Shown: piece by piece, positions 2,918 to 62,572 of the stretch
Numbering within the stretch: the first letter of the stretch is position 1
Layout of the letters: every line of letters begins with the position of its first letter
Assembly (NCBI GenBank): GCA_951406725.2
Contig: OX597816.1
Coordinates: 179,676,001-179,740,000 of the forward strand
Direction of reading: 5' to 3'
DNA from: Octopus vulgaris
Lineage: Eukaryota
DNA: 64,000 bases
Program-made: the position numbers and the translations under genes
Notes under the pieces: generated by a model
The model's input: only the letters and a program-made list of their open reading frames with translations
Told to the model about the DNA's origin: nothing
Databases searched by the model: none

Positions 2918-4660
2918 ATTAGTTAGTTAGTTAATTTTTTGGCTCAAAAAGCAAAAAGCAAGGCCATGTAGGGGGACATGGAGTTAAGTACAGGGTGGTG
3001 TTCATGTAAAGAGTTCAGGCCATTTGTAGTCAAGGGAGACTTTGAACCGAGCGGTCGTCGGTATCTTCACTATCTCGTCCGGCAGCTTATTCCACGGATC
3101 CGCAACCCGGACGGAGAAAGCCCCTCTCCTTCGATTGAGATGAAATAATCGCAGATAGAGCTTTTCGGAGTGACCCCGAAGCCGACGCTCTGGAGCAGGA
3201 GTGAAGAACATCTCTTTCGAGAGGTTACACTTTCCGCTTATGATGTTGTGAGCAAGAATGAGATCACCACGGCGTCGTCGTTTTTCTAGAGAATAAAGGT
3301 CGAGCGTCTTCAGCTTTTCTTCATAAGACAAATGCATGAGACCAAGAACCATGCGGGTAGCCAGCTTCTGGACTCTTTCGAGATGCTGTATGTCTTTGAG
3401 GAGATAAGGAGAAGAGGCTTGAATCCCGTACTCCAATATGGGTCTCACCAGCGTGACATAGAGCGGTAGGAATATGGCTGCTGTGAGCATTCCGAATGAC
3501 CGTCGGATCAAAAACAGAACTCCGCGTGCTTTGTTGGCAGCATGGACGCACTGGGCCGAAGGCGAAAAGGAAGAATCCACCAAGATACCCAGGTCCTTTA
3601 CCTGGTCGGTCCTCACCAGCAGCAGACGACCCGGCTCGAAATCAAGTTGAGTTGCAGGAGAAGAGCCAACAGGCAGATGACAGCACTTTGACACGTTCAG
3701 ACACAGGTCCCATTCGTTAGACCATCTCCAAACTTGGTGGAGGCATCGACGAAGATCCACTATATCACCGCGAGGAGCGACCAGTTTGACATCATCGGCA
3801 AATAGAAGGGTGTGTTGCGTGAGGTCGTCGGGCAAGTCATTTATGAAGACTAAGAACAATAAGGGCCCAAGCACTGAACCTTGAGGCACGCCACTGCTCG
3901 CACTGGAGACGTCGGACAGCGAACCATTAACTTGGACTTGGAAGGAGCGATCTGAGAGGAAGGCACCAACCCATCGTACAATATCCGGATGGAAACTATA
4001 TGCTTGAAGCTTGACAAGTAATAGGCGGTGGTTTACCGAGTCAAAAAGCTTTGGCAAAGTCCAATAAAACGATGTCAACAGCATCACCATCATCGAGGAT
4101 GCGCGTGACCAATTCTTCCATTACCAGTAAGTTGGTCAAGCATGATCTCTTCGGCACGAAGCTGTGTTGGGAATCAGAGATAGAGGCTGTGTTTTGGAGG
4201 TGGAGCAACATACTTTTCTTAAGGATGGTTTCGAACATCTTGCTGGGTCTTCGCGGATCCCTTTCTTGAAAATTGGGCAGATTATCGCTGTTCTCCAGTC
4301 CGCAGGTATAACGCCCGTCGCCAATGACATATTGAATAGACGTGTTAAAGGCTCGCAGATGACCGGAGCCAACGCTTTGATAACCTGTGGATGTATGCCA
4401 TCAGGGCCGTGACCCTTGTTGACATCGAGGCCTTGAATAACGCGTTCGACTTCGTCCCGCGTGATGACCAATCTAAGCATTAGAGGTACCGATCTATCAA
4501 ATGGAGGGGGTTCACGACAATCATCTTGTTTGAAAATAATTGAAAAAGCCTCGGCAAATAACTGACTCTGTTGATAAGGGTCCTCAATCGATACGCCTGT
4601 TGAGTCTACTAACGTTGCAATTTGGTTGTTCAAGCGGGAATTCCGTTGGACATGCGCAAA
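2918..4660 (-). mobile_element. 5'-truncated CR1-clade non-LTR retrotransposon (frameshifted RT pseudogene)
   Basis: ORFs 4136-4633, 4041-4238 and 3002-4093 give QHSFVPKRSCLTNLL, DIVLLDFAKAFDSVNH, SGVPQGSVLGPLLFLVFINDLP, LFADDVKL, VRPILEYG and LERVQKLATRM. (TAAC)n 3' tail near 2920. The NYRPVSL motif is deleted. Confidence 0.92.
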
Positions 4661-25124: not shown

Positions 25125-25760
25125 TAACTGCAATTTTATTGCCTAGTATAGGCATAAGACTTGAAATTTAGTGGAAGGTGTTAGCCAATAACTTCAACTC
25201 AAATGCTACACTGATACTTAATATAAAAATAAAGTCAACCAAGCGACATTTGTACTCAGAACATAAAACTGGAAGAAATGCCGTGAAGTGTTTTATCTGG
25301 TGTGAAAAGATCTGCTAGAAATAACAGTTAAATCTCCCTCAAACCACACTTTACCTTTAGATAATATCGTTCTGGGAGCTCTGCACAGTAGGAAAAGACA
25401 GGTTGGTTACAGTTGGAATGATTTCATGATATGTCTGCTCGATTCTGAGCTGAACTGGGGTCTAACAACAACAATATCAACGGCAAATAATGTTGTAGTG
25501 ACCCAACATAAAAGCCTCAAAGCTGTGGCCTGATCTACTGCAATGAGTCCCAAACCACACCCCACTGTCCTTAAAAATGAAAAGAAAGAAAAAACTAACT
25601 GCACAATTGCTGGAACAATGATGGAATGACATCAGCGGAAACAACTTTAATCGTGGTAATCTTACAAATGTAATGTGTTGAGAAGCCCAGACACATCGTC
25701 AGCAGCATTATTTACATTATTTACATTCGATGGATATTTGTCCTCATCTTGTTTGTTGTT

Positions 25761-25806
25761 AACACAACGTTTCGGCTGATGTACCTATCAGCCTTCTTCA
25801 GGTGTC
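25761..25806 (-). ncRNA. Minimal type I hammerhead motif in the inverted PLE pseudo-LTR
   Basis: GACAC-CUGAAGA-A-GGCUGAU(AGGUAC)AUCAGCC-GAAA-C-GUU-GUGUU. Stem I GACAC/GUGUU, 7-bp stem II, palindromic AACGUU at stem III. Confidence 0.65.
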
Positions 25807-27221
25807 TTGGGAAAATTTCGAACCTAGGTTCTCATTCATATCTGCACTTGATCAATTCACAGAATTGATCAAGGATACTCCCATTCAATCCAGCCAGATG
25901 GTGAGTCTTCATATGATAAACCTGTTCACCAAAGTCCCAACTGGTGAAGCACTATCGGTGATACAAGAAAAACTAGTGACAGACACCCATCTAAAAGAAT
26001 GCACTAGTATACTAATAAGAAACTTGATGGAAAATTTTACCTTCTGTGTAGAAACTACCTACTTCAGTATGGACACTGATATATATCGACAAGAGGAGGG
26101 TTTAGCTTTGGGGCCGCCATTATCACCGGTAATAGCCAATATATACATGGGATACTTTGAGAATTTGGCTTTAGGATCAACGCCACTAAAACCAACCCTA
26201 TGGCTGCGATATGTTGATGACACCTTTATACTCTGGCCCCACCAGGAAGATGTCCAAGTGCTGTTAGATCATGTGAACTCAATAAAGCCATCCATATAGT
26301 TTACAATGAAAAAGGAAAAAGACAATCAGCTGGCATTCCTGGACGTATTGATAACACGTACCAAGTATGGATTCAGGACATCCGTATACTGCAAGCCGAC
26401 CTTTACTGGACTATACCTCAGCTTCAATTCTCACCATCCATACAGTGTAAAGAGAGGGATTGCTCAGTGCCTAAAACATCGTGCAAAGAATATAAGTAGC
26501 GATCGTGATACCCACCACAAAGAAATGATCAAACTCAGTAACAATCTATTAAGCAACAGTTACCCCAAAAGTATACTATCCTCTCCAGTTATGAAGAAGA
26601 GAGAGGATGAGGCCAATAAACTGTCCACAGTCTGTCCTGTCTACCCTATGTGAAAGGCCTCTCCGAAAAGATACAAAAGATATGCGGCCCATATGATATC
26701 AGGACAGCATTCAAGAGTAACACAACACTTAGTAAATATCTCCTTCGAGTAAAACCACCAATAGAAGAGAGTATGACGAAAGACTGCATGTACTCCATCC
26801 CATGCAGTTGTGGTAGGTTATACAAAGGCGAAGCATTTCGCCTTCGCAAAATAAGGGTAGACGAACAGCGCAAATCTGTGAAACGAGGAGATATTGATAA
26901 ATCGGGTATAGCTGATCATGTATGGAAAAATGGAGACCACCTCATCCGGGTGGGATGAAGTTTAAATAATAGATAGAAAACACCACTGGAAAATACGAAA
27001 ACAAAAAGAAGCAGCACATATGCTAGGTAACAACAACCTCCTAAGCAGCCCGAGTGCAGACATGAGTAGCATTTGGGAACCGGTATGAAGGAAGGAAAGA
27101 AAAATATTAGATTTATAAGTCCTAAAATTCACCCCATAATTGCCCACGGGCATATGGCGTAGTGGTTAGCAGTTCGATTTCAAGCAGTGACCTGAATAAT
27201 GATAATAATAATAATAACAAT

Positions 27222-29044: not shown

Positions 29045-29939
29045 AATGTGTATATATATATATGTGTGTTGTGTGTATATATACGTGTGCGTATGTATAG
29101 TACTTGCACGCACACATACACACACACACACACACGCACGAACACACCATCGATTTATATCAATACGAAGAATATCAAACATATTTCTTCATGAAAACAA
29201 GATAACAAAGCACTTTCTTTAAGGAAGGATGATCTATAATAAAGAGAAATATTGCACCAGTTCATCAAATATCATAGTGACAGGCGAACAGAAATGATAA
29301 TCGATCTTTTAATCTATTTTAGAAACATATATATTAGGATATTTTGGCAGCTGTAGCATTTCTGAATTATTTTAACGATATGTCATGTTCTCAAAATAAA
29401 AAGCCAACCTACTATTTTATCTGTTGAAACATATTTCAACATTATCCGAGCACTTTCTTCCTAATGGCTTCGTCAGAAAGTGTATTATTATTTCATTACT
29501 AACGATGCAATCATCGTTAAAAATGGACTTTGACTAGAAAACTGCCGTATGCGGTGGAATATGAAATAAGAAGTCGACAAACCGAGACGGAGATGCGATT
29601 TCAATTCCTTGCTGGGTAACTTTCTCTCCACACATTTATCGTTATCTTTTATTTGTTTCAGTCATTGGACTGCGGTCATGCTGGGGCACCGTCGAGAAGA
29701 GTTTTAATCAAACCAATCGACTCTAGTACTTACTTTTATAGACCGAGTACTTTTCTATCGGTATTTTTTACCGAACAGCTAAGTCACGGGTACGTAACCA
29801 AGCCAATATCGTTTGCCAAGTGGTGGGGGTTGGCTAAACAAGCACAAAATCTCAAATACACACGCCCCACCCCACAAAATAGGTTAAATGATGGTGCGAT
29901 GGGATGAAATGAATAGAGAGGAAAGGAGTAGTAAGATGC

Positions 29940-32944: not shown

Positions 32945-34585
32945 TTATTCTTTATTCTTTTACTTGTTTCAGTCTTCAGACTGCGAACCATGCTGGGGTA
33001 CCACCTTGAACTTTTCGTCGAATGAATCGACCCCAGGATTATTTTCTAAGCCTGGTACTTATTCTATCAGTTCCTTTTGCCGAACCGCTAAGTTACGGGG
33101 ACGCAAACACACCAACACCGTTTGTCAAGCGGTGGGGTACAAACACAAACACAAAGGCACACACACTCACAGATATGCATACATATATACTGGGTCGTCT
33201 GGAAAGTTCGTGCCGATTTTTAAAGGAAAGGAAAAGGTCAATAAATATTTGCCATTACATTTCTAATCAACCAAATATGAACCATTTTGTTGCACAATGC
33301 GTCTCCATCTTTCCTTTAATTTGAAATTACCCTCTTCTCAGAATTGAGGTGGTTTCATGGCAAAGAATTCATCAAGGTATCTTTTTACGTCATCCAAGGA
33401 ATTGAAATTAAGACTATTCTGCAGAGACCCGAATAAGTGAAAATCCGAAGGCGCAATATCTGGTGAATATGGAGGGTGGGGTAACACATCCCAGCCGAGC
33501 TGCAGTAATTTTTATCTGGTTCCCAAAGAAACGTGCGGTCTTGCATTATCATATTGGAAAACAACACCCTTCCTGTTGGCCAATTCTGGACATTTCTCTT
33601 GAATTGCTGCTTTTAACTCGTCCAGTTGTGTGCAATATTTCTCAGAATTTATTGTCTGGTTACTTAGGAGAAGCTCATAGTACAGGATTCCTTTCCAATT
33701 CCCTCAGACACAAAGCAAGACTTTTTTAGGGTGAAGACCCGCTTTTGGGGTGGTTAAAGGTGGCTCATGTCGCTTACTCTAGGATTGCTTTCTCTAAACA
33801 TCTCGGTAGATTATCTATTTCTCATCACCTGTCACAATTTGCTTTAAAAAAGGCGCGTTTTCATTCCGTTTATAAAGTGAATCACAGTTGGAAATGCGAT
33901 CCAAAAGGTTCTTCTCACTCAACTCATGTGGTACCCAAACATTGTAGTGATTTGTGTACCCAAGCTTTACCAGGTGTTCATGAACGACGGATTTTGATAG
34001 GCTGAGGCTTTCTGACAATTCTCGGGTTGTGCAATGTGGGTTATTCGCAATTAATGACTTGATTTGGTCATCATCTGTAGTGGATGGTCTGCCTGATCGC
34101 TCTTTATCAATAAGGCTACAATCTCCAGCTCGGAACCTTGTGAACCACTTCCGTACAGTTCTTTCAGATAAAGAAACATCACCGTAAACTGCGCATATTT
34201 CTTTAATTGCTTGTGAGGCATTTTTTCTTTTACGTAAAAAGAAAAGCATCAAGTGCCGAAAATGAACTTTCTTATCTTCCATTTTAAAGTGTTACAGAAT
34301 TAACACAGGTTATAGGAACATAAACCTTCTTCCAAGAAAAGATAGCTTAAAATGTGCTCTAAATGGAGGTGTAGTGAAATCCTATTTTATGGTCAACCAT
34401 GTTCTAAAATAAGTCGAAAGGTAAGCTACAATAAATTGGCACGAATTTTCCGGACAACCCAGTACATATACAACGGATTTCCGTCGGCCTGAGGCTATAG
34501 TAAGAGACTCTTGCTCAATATGTCAGGCAATAGGGCTGAACTCGGAACCATGTGGTTGCGAAGCAAGCTTCTTACCACACAGGTA
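32945..34585 (-). mobile_element. SINE family A copy split by a mariner insertion
   Basis: 3' half at 32945-33187 and 5' half at ~34470-34585. Confidence 0.75.
33190..34462 (-). mobile_element. Near full-length mariner (DD34D-type) transposon with a disrupted transposase
   Basis: TA|CTGGGTCGTCTGGAAAGTTCGTGCC ... GGCACGAATTTTCCGGACAACCCAG|TA. ORF 33815-34282 has RSGRP, WVPHEL and IVTGDEK; downstream HPPYSPDIAPSD in another frame. Confidence 0.93.
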
Positions 34586-45510: not shown

Positions 45511-45756
45511 CAGTTCTATATTTAAGAGATGAGGAATTATGTACATTATTTACATTGTTTTTACATTTGACAGATATTTGTCCTCGTCTTGTTTGTTGAT
45601 AATACAACATTTCGGTTGATATACCCTCCAGCCTTCATCAGGTGTCTTGGGGAAATTTTGAACCTGGGTTCTCATTCCCAAGGTATTTTTCGATGTTGTT
45701 GTTGTCATCATCATCATCATCATCATCATCATTATCATCATCATCAGCATCATTAC

Positions 45757-50026: not shown

Positions 50027-50255
50027 AGTTCAAGACTTAGGGCATACCTGTAAGTTCAAGACTTAGGGCATACCTGTAAGTTCAAGACTTAGGGCATACC
50101 TGTAAGTTCAAGACTTAGGGCATACCTGTAAGTTCAAGACTTAGGGCATACCTGTAAGTTCAAGACTTAGGGCATACCTGTAAGTTCAAGGCTTAGGGCA
50201 TACCTGTAAGTTCAAGACTTAGGGCATACCTGTAAGTTCAAGACTTAGGGCATAC
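50027..50255. repeat. 26-bp minisatellite, ~8.8 copies (AGTTCAAGACTTAGGGCATACCTGTA)
   Basis: Head-to-tail exact copies with one A>G variant and no spacers. Confidence 0.95.
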
Positions 50256-55861: not shown

Positions 55862-55935
<74 letters not shown>

Positions 55936-55950
55936 GTATATATATATATA

Positions 55951-56203
55951 TCGTGACGTATTTTTGCCATTTCAATATGGCTAACCCCTAAGGGTGGATG
56001 CTACTGTAGCTTTTAGCCCCAGGAGGACACACTCCTCCAGCTGGCCATAGACACACTTTCTGTGTCCTGTCAGTATTTGCAAAGGGAAGTCATCCTTCCC
56101 GTCTTCAACTTATGATACACACGGACTCGAGTTTCGAGGTATTGACCTCTCGTCAGCGTGTGACAATCATAGTTGTCGGCGAGAATTAGATTTCCTTCAC
56201 AAA
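55951..56203 (-). mobile_element. ~255-bp structured non-coding element carrying a hammerhead ribozyme (retrozyme-like or solo PLE pseudo-LTR)
   Basis: Flanked by (TA)n-rich tracts. Hairpins GGAGGA/TCCTCC, GACACA/TGTGTC, GGGAAG/CTTCCC and GGCTAA/TTAGCC, plus the HHR. Confidence 0.7.
56118..56162 (-). ncRNA. Canonical type I hammerhead ribozyme
   Basis: CACACG-CUGACGA-GAGGU(CAAU)ACCUC-GAAA-C(UCGA)G-UC^CGUGUG. All core nucleotides present, 6-bp stem I, 5-bp stem II, GUC cleavage triplet. Confidence 0.88.
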
Positions 56204-56266
56204 TATATATATATACATATACATAAATATATGTATACATTTACATACATATATACATACATACGT

Positions 56267-56662: not shown

Positions 56663-56737
<75 letters not shown>

Positions 56738-56841
56738 GGCACACGTCCAAGGTGCCACGCAGTGGAACTGAACCCGGAACCATGTGGTTGGGAAGCAAGC
56801 TTCTTAGTACGCAGCCACGCCTGCGCCTATACGTATATACA

Positions 56842-60431: not shown

Positions 60432-60790
60432 TTGGCCGAAATGAGAACACAACCAAGATACAAGCTTAGAAATACATCGGGTCAGCCAGGACTGTCTTCA
60501 AGGATTCCGGAAAGACGATTCGTCACATTCCTGGCAAGTCACGCGTGGTGCCTCAGAGACGAAGAGCCCCCGTACGATGATATCAAGTGGAGGATCATAG
60601 AGCAGCCGGGATTCTACATTAACGGGAGCAGGTACAGCAAACTTTGCATCGCTCCCTGAAACCAGAGGTACCGAACTCTCACCAGGAAATTTATAGTCCC
60701 TCCATCTATTTCAAACGCTATCTCCTGCAAGCAGATTAGATCCGGAAATGTCCTGACGAACTAAAAGCAGCCTAAGGGCGAAATACCCCA
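60432..60790 (+). mobile_element. PLE GIY-YIG C-terminal remnant (same general type as 53207-54090)
   Basis: LASHAWCLRDEEPPYDDIKWRIIEQPGFYINGSRYSKLC resembles the LSxHIWxLK..I.W.I...Y..G...C.LC tail of some PLE endonucleases. Confidence 0.6.
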
Positions 60791-61033
60791 TTTCCTCTCT
60801 TATTCTCCAGATGAATTAATCTAAGGGAGATAACCCGTCCTCGCCGACCTAGATTGTTTATTCGCTAGTTACTTACTAAGTAAGGAACCGTAACAAATTC
60901 CTGCCTCCCAGAGTTGAAGAGTTATATATGCCTGCAGTTTTAGAGTCTGACGAGTCGTCCATGTGGCTGGGCACTTTATGGATGGGTAACCATTGGTCAC
61001 TTTATGACCGGACATGGATGTAACTGCATATAA

Positions 61034-61574: not shown

Positions 61575-62572
61575 TCAATATCTTGTTGCTCCTCCTTTGG
61601 CAGCAATGACAGCTGCTACGCGGGCCGGCATGCTGTCTATGAGTGCCTGCAGGTACTGTGCAGGGATGGCCCTCCATGCAGCAAGAAGTGCCCCAAACAG
61701 CTCGTGTCGGTTCCTGTATTGCTGCACATTCAAATCCCTACCCAATCGACTCCAGAGGTTCTCAATAGGGTTCAGATCATGACCGTCACCCCATGGTCCT
61801 TGAAGAAACCGGTTGTGAGCTTGGCTGTGTGGGGAGGCGCATTGTCCTGCTGGAGCACGTACTCTTCGCCACCAAAGAGGTATCCCGCAGAGGGTATGGC
61901 AGCATTCCATACTATCTCAACGTACTTTGTGGCGTTGATGTTGCCTTCGATGGCATAGAGCCGCCCAACACCACTGTAGCTGAACGCCCCCCACACCATC
62001 AGACCACCCCCACCATGCTTCATGGTGGGAGCAATGCAGACTTTGTTGAAGCGCTCACCCCTGCGGCGTCGCACATGGACAAGCTTGTCACTGACGAGAC
62101 TGAATCGCGACTCGTCAGTGAACATCACTGTCCGCCACTGCTGCACGGTCCATGTCTTGTGTGCACGGGCCCAGAGCAGCCGCCTCTTCCGGTTTTGGGC
62201 TGTAAAGAGCGGCTTACGGGCGGCCCTACAGGATTTTAGACCAGCTTCCAGTAATCTGGTCTTGACGGTGGTTGTAGACAACTGCTTCCCTGTCACCTTT
62301 TGCATCTCCTCCGCCAGTTGCCGGCTTGTTGCCCTTCGGTCGTTCAGTGACTTTCGGATCAGCATCCGGTCCTCCCGTTGGGTCGTCAGCCTCTTCCGCC
62401 CCCTACCCTTTTTGTCAGCTGCTGATCCGGTTTCCTCGTATTTCTTAAATAAGCACTGAATTGTGCGCCTGGCTACACCAAGTTTTCTGGCTATTGCAGC
62501 CTCCGACAGCTTCCCACGCCACGAGAGAGCCTCGTACCGTCTCTCCAAGGTCATGCGAGGTCTTGGGCCCAT
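61575..62572 (-). pseudogene. Tc1 transposase with a single frameshifting deletion just before DLNPIEN
   Basis: ORF 61772-62572: HTH, GRGRKR, ARKP, VMFTDESRF, HGGGGLMVWG, QQDNAPPH. Continues in ORF 61575-61910 as DLNPIENLW..SMPARVAAVIAAKGGATRY. WPxxSP is missing. Confidence 0.92.

Follow-up and report, generated by a model that had tools for sequence, protein, structure and literature searches.

Truncated copy of an octopus hammerhead retrozyme family and the Penelope-like footprint at its insertion ends

The non-LTR retrozymes of metazoans (Cervera and de la Pena 2020, PMC7229834), such as the 350-390-bp repeats of mussel, are described as tandem, non-coding units of 150-450 bp with less than 50% GC, carrying a canonical type I hammerhead with a short palindromic stem III and residing in genomes that also contain Penelope-like elements (PLEs). 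The octopus family reported here is alike in all of these respects. In the account of PMC7761336, no motif points to the mobilising element of retrozymes, and a partnership with PLEs is proposed. In vitro, a PLE was shown to start reverse transcription at two internal sites of the RNA, on both DNA strands, and the genomic tail represents the stretch in between (PMC11167929). Such a tail, inversion and a bias towards microsatellite or (TA)n targets are given as marks of PLEs (PMC8557442, PMC3846280). Dimeric hammerhead cleavage by means of a short stem III has equally been described (PMC4209133). As to the movement of retrozymes in animals, both mobilisation by PLEs and circular templates have so far been proposals made from co-occurrence and homology.

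The window copy and its ribozyme

The window, meaning the whole analysed stretch of 64,000 nucleotides, corresponds to G000:C3:179676001-179740000 in a 2.8-Gb animal genome. At 55950-56205 on its minus strand, it carries a 256-nt copy consisting of positions 272-353 followed by positions 1-174 of a 353-bp unit, which differs at 2 of 256 bases from the reference unit (L028:968-1320) and belongs to the youngest subfamily, A. One ribozyme is present and unit positions 175-271 (97 bases) are missing. The locus is a 5'-truncated, permuted, single-ribozyme insertion of a tandem 353-bp unit and not a monomer, as the first-pass annotation had proposed. Because of the single ribozyme and the 97 missing bases, release of a unit-length RNA from this copy is impossible; the locus itself is a dead end, with no sign of a host function. 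Both flanks are rich in TA, as had been noted before. The (TA)n target tract at the 3' junction covers 55880-55951, and a TA-rich tract adjoins the truncated 5' junction at 56203-56263, with a few bases of microhomology.

The minus strand from 56162 to 56118 reads as a complete type I hammerhead, in agreement with the annotation made from the letters alone. All core bases are present, together with a stem I of 6 bp, a stem II of 4-5 bp and a stem III of 2 bp with a palindrome ACUCGAGU. The features of the type (conserved core, three helices, open end in stem I) were all found. Cleavage after GUC, positioned by the hammerhead consensus, is predicted between 56124 and 56123, the latter being unit position 1. 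Comparison with Rfam Hammerhead_1 (RF00163) aligned all 45 model positions with 32.2 bits and an E-value of 5.2e-6; a scan of the window at Rfam gathering thresholds returned no match, this score lying under the gathering score of 34. Rfam matches to microRNA families were rejected as noise from TA and CA repeats. The 45-mer core occurs in 407 exact copies genome-wide and its reversed control in 0, hence the motif is not due to chance. A relaxed core pattern gave 471 matches genome-wide. In the window, a loose hammerhead pattern gave 28 overlapping matches, which are not informative alone; among the places it matched, 60753-60805 (+) and 29432-29476 (-) have unconvincing stems.

Stem I extends past an internal bulge (56106-56175), as claimed earlier. 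A tertiary contact is predicted between the unpaired U1.7 (56117) and the last A of loop II (56140), corresponding to the contact described for the Schistosoma ribozyme (PMC11875169). Searching 51 loci yielded 39 ribozymes, of which 36 were aligned to assess conservation; the other 3 were left out because a junction or an indel shifted them. The rows were picked for a recognisable core, so that core invariance is partly due to selection. U1.7 and the loop II A, neither of which was selected for, are invariant in 36/36 rows from subfamilies A, B and C. Compensatory changes were seen in the stem I extension (one change, 14 rows) and in stem II (10 rows), and stem cells were paired in 84% compared to 23-46% for slid partners, a difference that reflects few inherited events. 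As aligned, roughly half of the rows leave the distal helix of stem I unpaired, owing to the shift of subfamily C.

Median nearest-neighbour differences were 0.0% for A (40 copies), 1.6% for B (39) and 6.7% for C (30, chosen by likeness to one copy), and B and C are approximately 89% and 77% identical to A, respectively. With 407 exact cores, a 353-bp tandem period at related loci and up to 6 ribozymes in one arm, the earlier reading of a young multi-copy family with tandem arrays holds. The G10.1-C11.1 pair is found only in A. It is replaced by C-A in C and by C-U, U-U or C-A in B, where core position 4 is often a C as well. Despite the mismatch at this pair, B (419 B-type cores) and C are widely spread, and B has formed a nine-unit array, which shows that a canonical core is not required for spread. 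In folding predictions, the lone A or B core is mostly mis-paired (~0.78), and for A the inactive pairing reaches -14.5 kcal/mol against -8.7 kcal/mol for the active fold. The stem III palindrome is predicted to form an 8-bp duplex (-10.7 kcal/mol). Taken together, predicted inactive pairing and duplex are in line with dimeric cleavage; the mis-pairing of the lone motif fits a need for a dimer or helper and also counts against fast cleavage as a monomer.

The 253-nt stretch initially annotated folds better than 200/200 shuffles (z -4.9). The whole unit also folds far better than its shuffles (z -6.5, 0/100), with the cleavage-defined ends joined by stem I and positions 117-124 paired with 183-190. 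In 31 copies, pairing reaches 92-95% for this closing stem and for two hairpins near the first start site (see below), and one compensatory change is seen (14 rows). The window holds the 5' part of this domain at 55966-56007 on the minus strand (unit 117-158, left closing strand and two hairpins) and is without the right closing strand. The string of hairpins noted before is thus in part family fold and in part a product of truncation, by which 117-124 lost its partner. At the two start sites proper, the hairpins of the predicted fold lack conservation (64-66% paired), and RNAalifold returned a weak consensus only (-4.1 kcal/mol).

GC content of the unit is 42.5%. Over four natural units the longest stop-free frame is 66 codons, in agreement with the reported lack of an ORF. 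No ORF with reverse transcriptase (RT) and GIY-YIG domains was found within the unit element, no tRNA module was seen in 3 loci examined, and no LTR-body-LTR layout in 93 insertions; target-site duplications are masked by the (TA)n target. By its testable sequence features, the family is a non-LTR retrozyme, the class that had been suggested. It does not qualify as an autonomous PLE or, against the PLE families compared, as a pseudo-LTR, yet works like a PLE insertion. Identical insertions with shared flanks (L032/L037, L023/L024 and L367; 1 Mb, 11 kb and 4 kb apart) are segmental or assembly duplicates.

Elsewhere in the window, a 26-bp minisatellite (8.8 copies, 99% identity) is located at 50027-50255, and one RT fragment and two Tc1/mariner transposase pieces at 3002-4120, 33815-34291 and 61772-62572, all on the minus strand. 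A short GC-richer stretch between microsatellites at 56735-56830 resembles a tRNA-derived SINE. A broken PLE at 25760-27100 (relic 25832-27100, RT piece 25763-26299 on the plus strand) belongs to the very abundant P0001 family of mostly broken copies, with 23,243 first-look candidates. A motif resembling a minimal hammerhead lies opposite this element at ~25801, and a related motif at 45600-45641 (-).

Insertion ends and candidate partner elements

Junctions of the unit with (TA)n were counted genome-wide using exact patterns, so that the numbers are lower bounds. Unit positions 171-174 are joined to (TA)n in 494 cases (site 1) and position 217 in 383 cases (the exact form of site 2), while 0 junctions were found at the cleavage site. 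The 3' junction in the window (unit 172-174, 55950-55952 on the minus strand) is of the site-1 form and would mark the first of two fixed start sites for reverse transcription. Overall, site 1 is located at ~174 and site 2 at 216-221, mostly in two junction forms each and with a modal spacing of 43 nt. The same two sites are used in subfamilies B and C.

Whole insertions were followed from 93 of the 95 site-1 junctions listed on contigs C1-C3, picked by that junction alone. A second, inverted arm was joined head to head in 52/93, which is again a lower bound as arms under the BLAST limit are missed; 48/52 of these arms end at 213-221 and 51/52 have TA outside. The 5' ends are scattered over the whole unit and are not enriched at the cleavage site (4/93 within positions 1-7). 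These ends match the footprint of a PLE tail: two fixed internal 3' ends, 5' truncation, an inverted truncated copy and a microsatellite target. The spacing of 43 nt counts against this match, as PLE tails are quoted at 30-40 nt, slightly less. That PLEs mobilise the unit in trans, as suggested at first reading, is in this way backed by the insertions themselves. The RNA 3' of each start site contains a GU-rich tract, with which a (TA)n primer is likely to pair through G-T wobbles.

Autonomous PLEs are present in the same genome. From a GIY-YIG search, in which 150 of 6136 candidates were scored, three families were obtained (N1, N2 and N3), each with an RT and a C-terminal endonuclease region of GIY-YIG type preceded by a CxxxxCxxC linker. 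As this linker is assigned to Neptune/Nematis (PMC8557442), N1-N3 would be PLEs of Neptune type. The ORFs of N1 and N2 comprise 781 and 775 codons, and N3 has one open frame of 850 codons among 150 matches. Each family has two end sites that abut (TA)n, separated by 38 nt in N1, 32 nt in N2 and 42 nt in N3, and inverted arms were seen in N2 and N3. Past their start sites, the RNA reads TAT(AT), which corresponds to the (TA)n target. No hammerhead was detected in single copies of N1 and N2 using Rfam or in one of N3 using the pattern (L205, L225 and L343), although the Neptune clade is described as carrying one. N2 looks active at present: each of the 76 matches scored shows 100% identity across 573 residues, implying at least 76 copies (L225, L220 and L231; e.g. 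G000:C1:183176500-183186000). Among 20 N2 loci examined, six begin precisely 1227 bases ahead of the ORF and a seventh 1224 bases ahead; the element there adjoins (TA)n directly, and no terminal repeat lies upstream. The open N3 copy (L343/L363, G000:C3:86384400-86389100) is a partial tandem with an inverted, tail-bearing arm; the full N3 unit measures 3991 bp.

Which of the three could act on the retrozyme depends on the measure used. Site spacing favours N3 (42 nt) and age favours N1 or N2: divergence is 0.9-4% among sampled N3 copies, older than A, as against 0.15% for intact N1 and 0.0% for N2, which both match the age of A in sets that are biased young. As candidate partners, the families were ranked N3, then N1, then N2.

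If the 353-bp unit were itself the pseudo-LTR of an autonomous PLE and its copies truncated 3' ends thereof, every end feature listed above would be expected, as each is a feature of PLE insertion. N3 sequence moreover touches the unit directly at three loci (L082, L144 and L165) among 220 partly redundant loci screened. This contact can be explained by shared TA targets, and at L082 and L144 the touching N3 pieces are older (3.2% and 3.7% from the column majority) than the A units. The suggestion that N3 ends in the unit was rejected: N1, N2 and N3 have own, unrelated ends that share no sequence with the unit, and 0 of 29 other N3 loci hold it. Short words common to the unit and the N1 and N3 ends, seen by eye, are likely chance. 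A chimera suspected at the intact N3 copy (L363) turned out to be two separate insertions, with 0/20 loci chimeric, and at L220 the unit was inserted separately and long ago, 600 bp beyond the (TA)n end of the PLE. Unit homology was absent from 40 other GIY-YIG loci, which cover part of the PLE diversity of the genome. Finally, pure unit repeats make up entire arms, the longest measuring 1.8 kb in A and 3.1 kb in B. The pseudo-LTR origin is largely refuted and was left with hardly any probability. In none of the three (TA)n-targeting PLE families does the unit serve as the 3' repeat. The annotation's caveat, by which an element occurring only on PLE ORFs would be an ordinary pseudo-LTR, accordingly did not overturn its reading.

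Template of the arrays

Of 145 arms, 88 cross the cleavage junction and 52 exceed one unit in length, from which it follows that the template was not a cleaved linear monomer. The origin of the units within arrays was followed in 82 subfamily-A insertions, a non-random set from which two segmental duplicates had been dropped. Uniformity at 7 lineage sites was observed in 60 of the 67 testable insertions, whereas 2000 random draws gave 14 on average and never more than 25; the other 7 are mosaic. Among 57 multi-piece insertions, 13 have a variant in at least two pieces that is absent from the other insertions of the set, none of them at CpG and 10 with the variant on both arms. Private is here relative to the analysed set, which is only part of subfamily A. 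In L134 and L117 such a variant is present in 5/5 and 6/6 pieces, respectively. Since the units share one haplotype and private variants occur on both arms, the arrays were likely made in one reverse-transcription event and not by local expansion.

It has been proposed that arrays derive from local expansion of single inserted PLE terminal repeats (bioRxiv 10.64898/2026.07.22.740005). Unequal crossover of this kind would also homogenise units within one arm, and the sharing among subsets of units in the nine-unit B array (L273, G000:C2:14086400-14089550) suggests later exchange. Against it, arrays and short copies share their two fixed end sites, the PLE-type inverted arms are themselves multi-unit, the private variants stand on both arms in the 10 insertions just mentioned, and arrays are as young as single copies. 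Local expansion was consequently given very little probability. The nine-unit array has a non-canonical core, ends at unit 174 and has no flanking (TA)n; it is a candidate source locus, and its existence rules out that subfamily B never forms arrays.

Within copying in a single event, the template was probably a circle, judged from the unit sequences; a circle explains array-wide variants directly. Of 24 sequencing runs, five were compared. In one of them (X19), the unit was recovered as a single 383-nt contig, which runs from unit position 4 round to 33 with one difference and continues without a break across the cleavage site and the two start sites. With the 31-letter words presumably used for these assemblies, 383 nt (353 + 30) is the length expected from a closed cycle, and the contig fits a circle or a perfect multimer. 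The RNA status of this run is a guess, and it is labelled with another organism code. In runs X1, X8 and X17, only short pieces on the unit were found. Contig depth of the unit is higher than that of N2 (a 1462-nt contig in X19) in X19 and not in X8, a weak hint in that contig depth cannot rank sequences; X8 looks like DNA, with one flat contig over the 5' half of N2.

Alternatively, PLE-driven mobilisation might proceed from an uncleaved linear multimer transcript, leaving circles unneeded and the ribozyme mostly silent or a passenger. At L117, the unit variants follow one another identically on the two arms, a pattern that calls for a template of several units instead of a monomer circle, and the mosaic arrays and in-register variants on both arms point in the same direction. 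The predicted mis-pairing of the core, the success of the non-canonical subfamilies B and C, the dispensability of the ribozyme for PLE insertion in vitro (PMC11167929) and cleavage in only 1/9 frog dimers (bioRxiv 10.64898/2026.07.22.740005) would all be accommodated. However, linear copying with 5' truncation only shortens arrays, and a private change of one unit cannot reach all units, as in L134 and L117, without an amplifying step. No large source array is apparent, with 95/407 exact cores on C1-C3 (~22% of the genome), and subfamilies A, B and C have all retained the bases of the tertiary contact and the stem pairs. A linear multimer template was for these reasons considered unlikely.

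The preferred reading, to which we assign a probability of about 0.6, is that the window locus represents a truncated single-ribozyme copy of a retrozyme family that is mobilised in trans by a (TA)n-targeting PLE of Neptune type copying a multi-unit template, most probably a circular RNA released by the ribozyme. In short, read-through transcripts of arrays with at least two ribozymes would self-cleave, probably as dimers via the stem III palindrome, yielding 353-nt units of which the ends, held by stem I, would be ligatable. A PLE protein, the presumed agent behind the observed footprint, would then nick (TA)n and start reverse transcription at unit ~174, the other strand being started at ~217. 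As the arms record directly, copying passes the cleavage junction, for up to several units and with variable stop points, after which two products are joined head to head or one arm only is kept, as in the window.

Array length differs between subfamilies. Arms with at least two ribozymes make up 17/69 in A and 1/76 in B (p 1.4e-5; 45 A and 48 B insertions, assigned by base 151), the median arm is 387 nt in A versus 174 nt in B, and B arms are shorter at all lengths. This contrast is a correlation and may reflect the partner enzyme rather than the ribozyme. More tentatively, the insertions could be read as a record of rolling-circle copying, in which a hammerhead-free PLE of Neptune type, with (TA)n as a primer held by G-T wobbles, starts copying at two fixed internal sites of the 353-nt ribozyme circle and thereby passes the mutations of one unit to all units and both arms. 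In this extended form, the regained G10.1-C11.1 pair and the longer arrays of the youngest subfamily would suggest selection on the ribozyme for circle production; we regard it as possible but doubtful.

Comparison with known systems

A search of the open literature, with subscription journals, Repbase/Dfam and supplements (e.g. the model figure of PMC7229834) outside its scope, returned no report of this family or of retrozymes ending in PLE tails. Both the class and the proposal of a PLE partnership predate this analysis; added here are footprint evidence for the class of enzyme and arrays made in one event, against local amplification. For the metazoan non-LTR retrozymes (PMC7229834), circles and cleavage were demonstrated, whereas both are predictions for the octopus family. 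The insertion ends, on the other hand, were mapped in the octopus family, with two fixed internal sites, head-to-head inversion and (TA)n. Li, Clavereau and Pollet (bioRxiv 10.64898/2026.07.22.740005) likewise conclude that PLEs are the partners of retrozymes, on the evidence of co-occurrence and homology to PLE pseudo-LTRs (pLTRs) and with local amplification to account for arrays; in octopus, the unit matched no pLTR of the PLE families compared, and its arrays have the look of single insertion events.

With endonuclease-bearing PLEs (Poseidon PAc, PMC11167929; Neptune/Naiad, PMC8557442; Adineta Penelope, PMC3846280), as these sources describe them, the octopus family shares two internal start sites giving a tail, 5' truncation, an inverted truncated copy and an AT-rich or (TA)n target, and PLEs act in trans on pLTR-flanked cargo. 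The octopus unit differs from them in having no ORF, a canonical instead of a minimal hammerhead and start sites 174 and 217 nt past the cleavage site. Its junctions suggest pairing of the primer, while PAc is reported to start without homology (PMC11167929). With the Schistosoma-type model RF00163, the window ribozyme shares the 45 model positions, a 6-nt loop II ending in A and the unpaired U1.7; it departs from the model by its score below the gathering score, and the older subfamilies by having no G10.1-C11.1 pair in the usual register.

What the octopus family offers beside these systems is a set of insertion ends in agreement with the one PLE mechanism that has been mapped biochemically. 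The sites at which copying should start are predicted exactly, three PLE families with intact ORFs are at hand as candidate enzymes, and the ribozyme exists in three versions that differ in age. The family thereby makes testable in vitro which enzyme copies the RNA, whether a circle gives rise to multi-unit cDNA and how ribozyme quality relates to array length.
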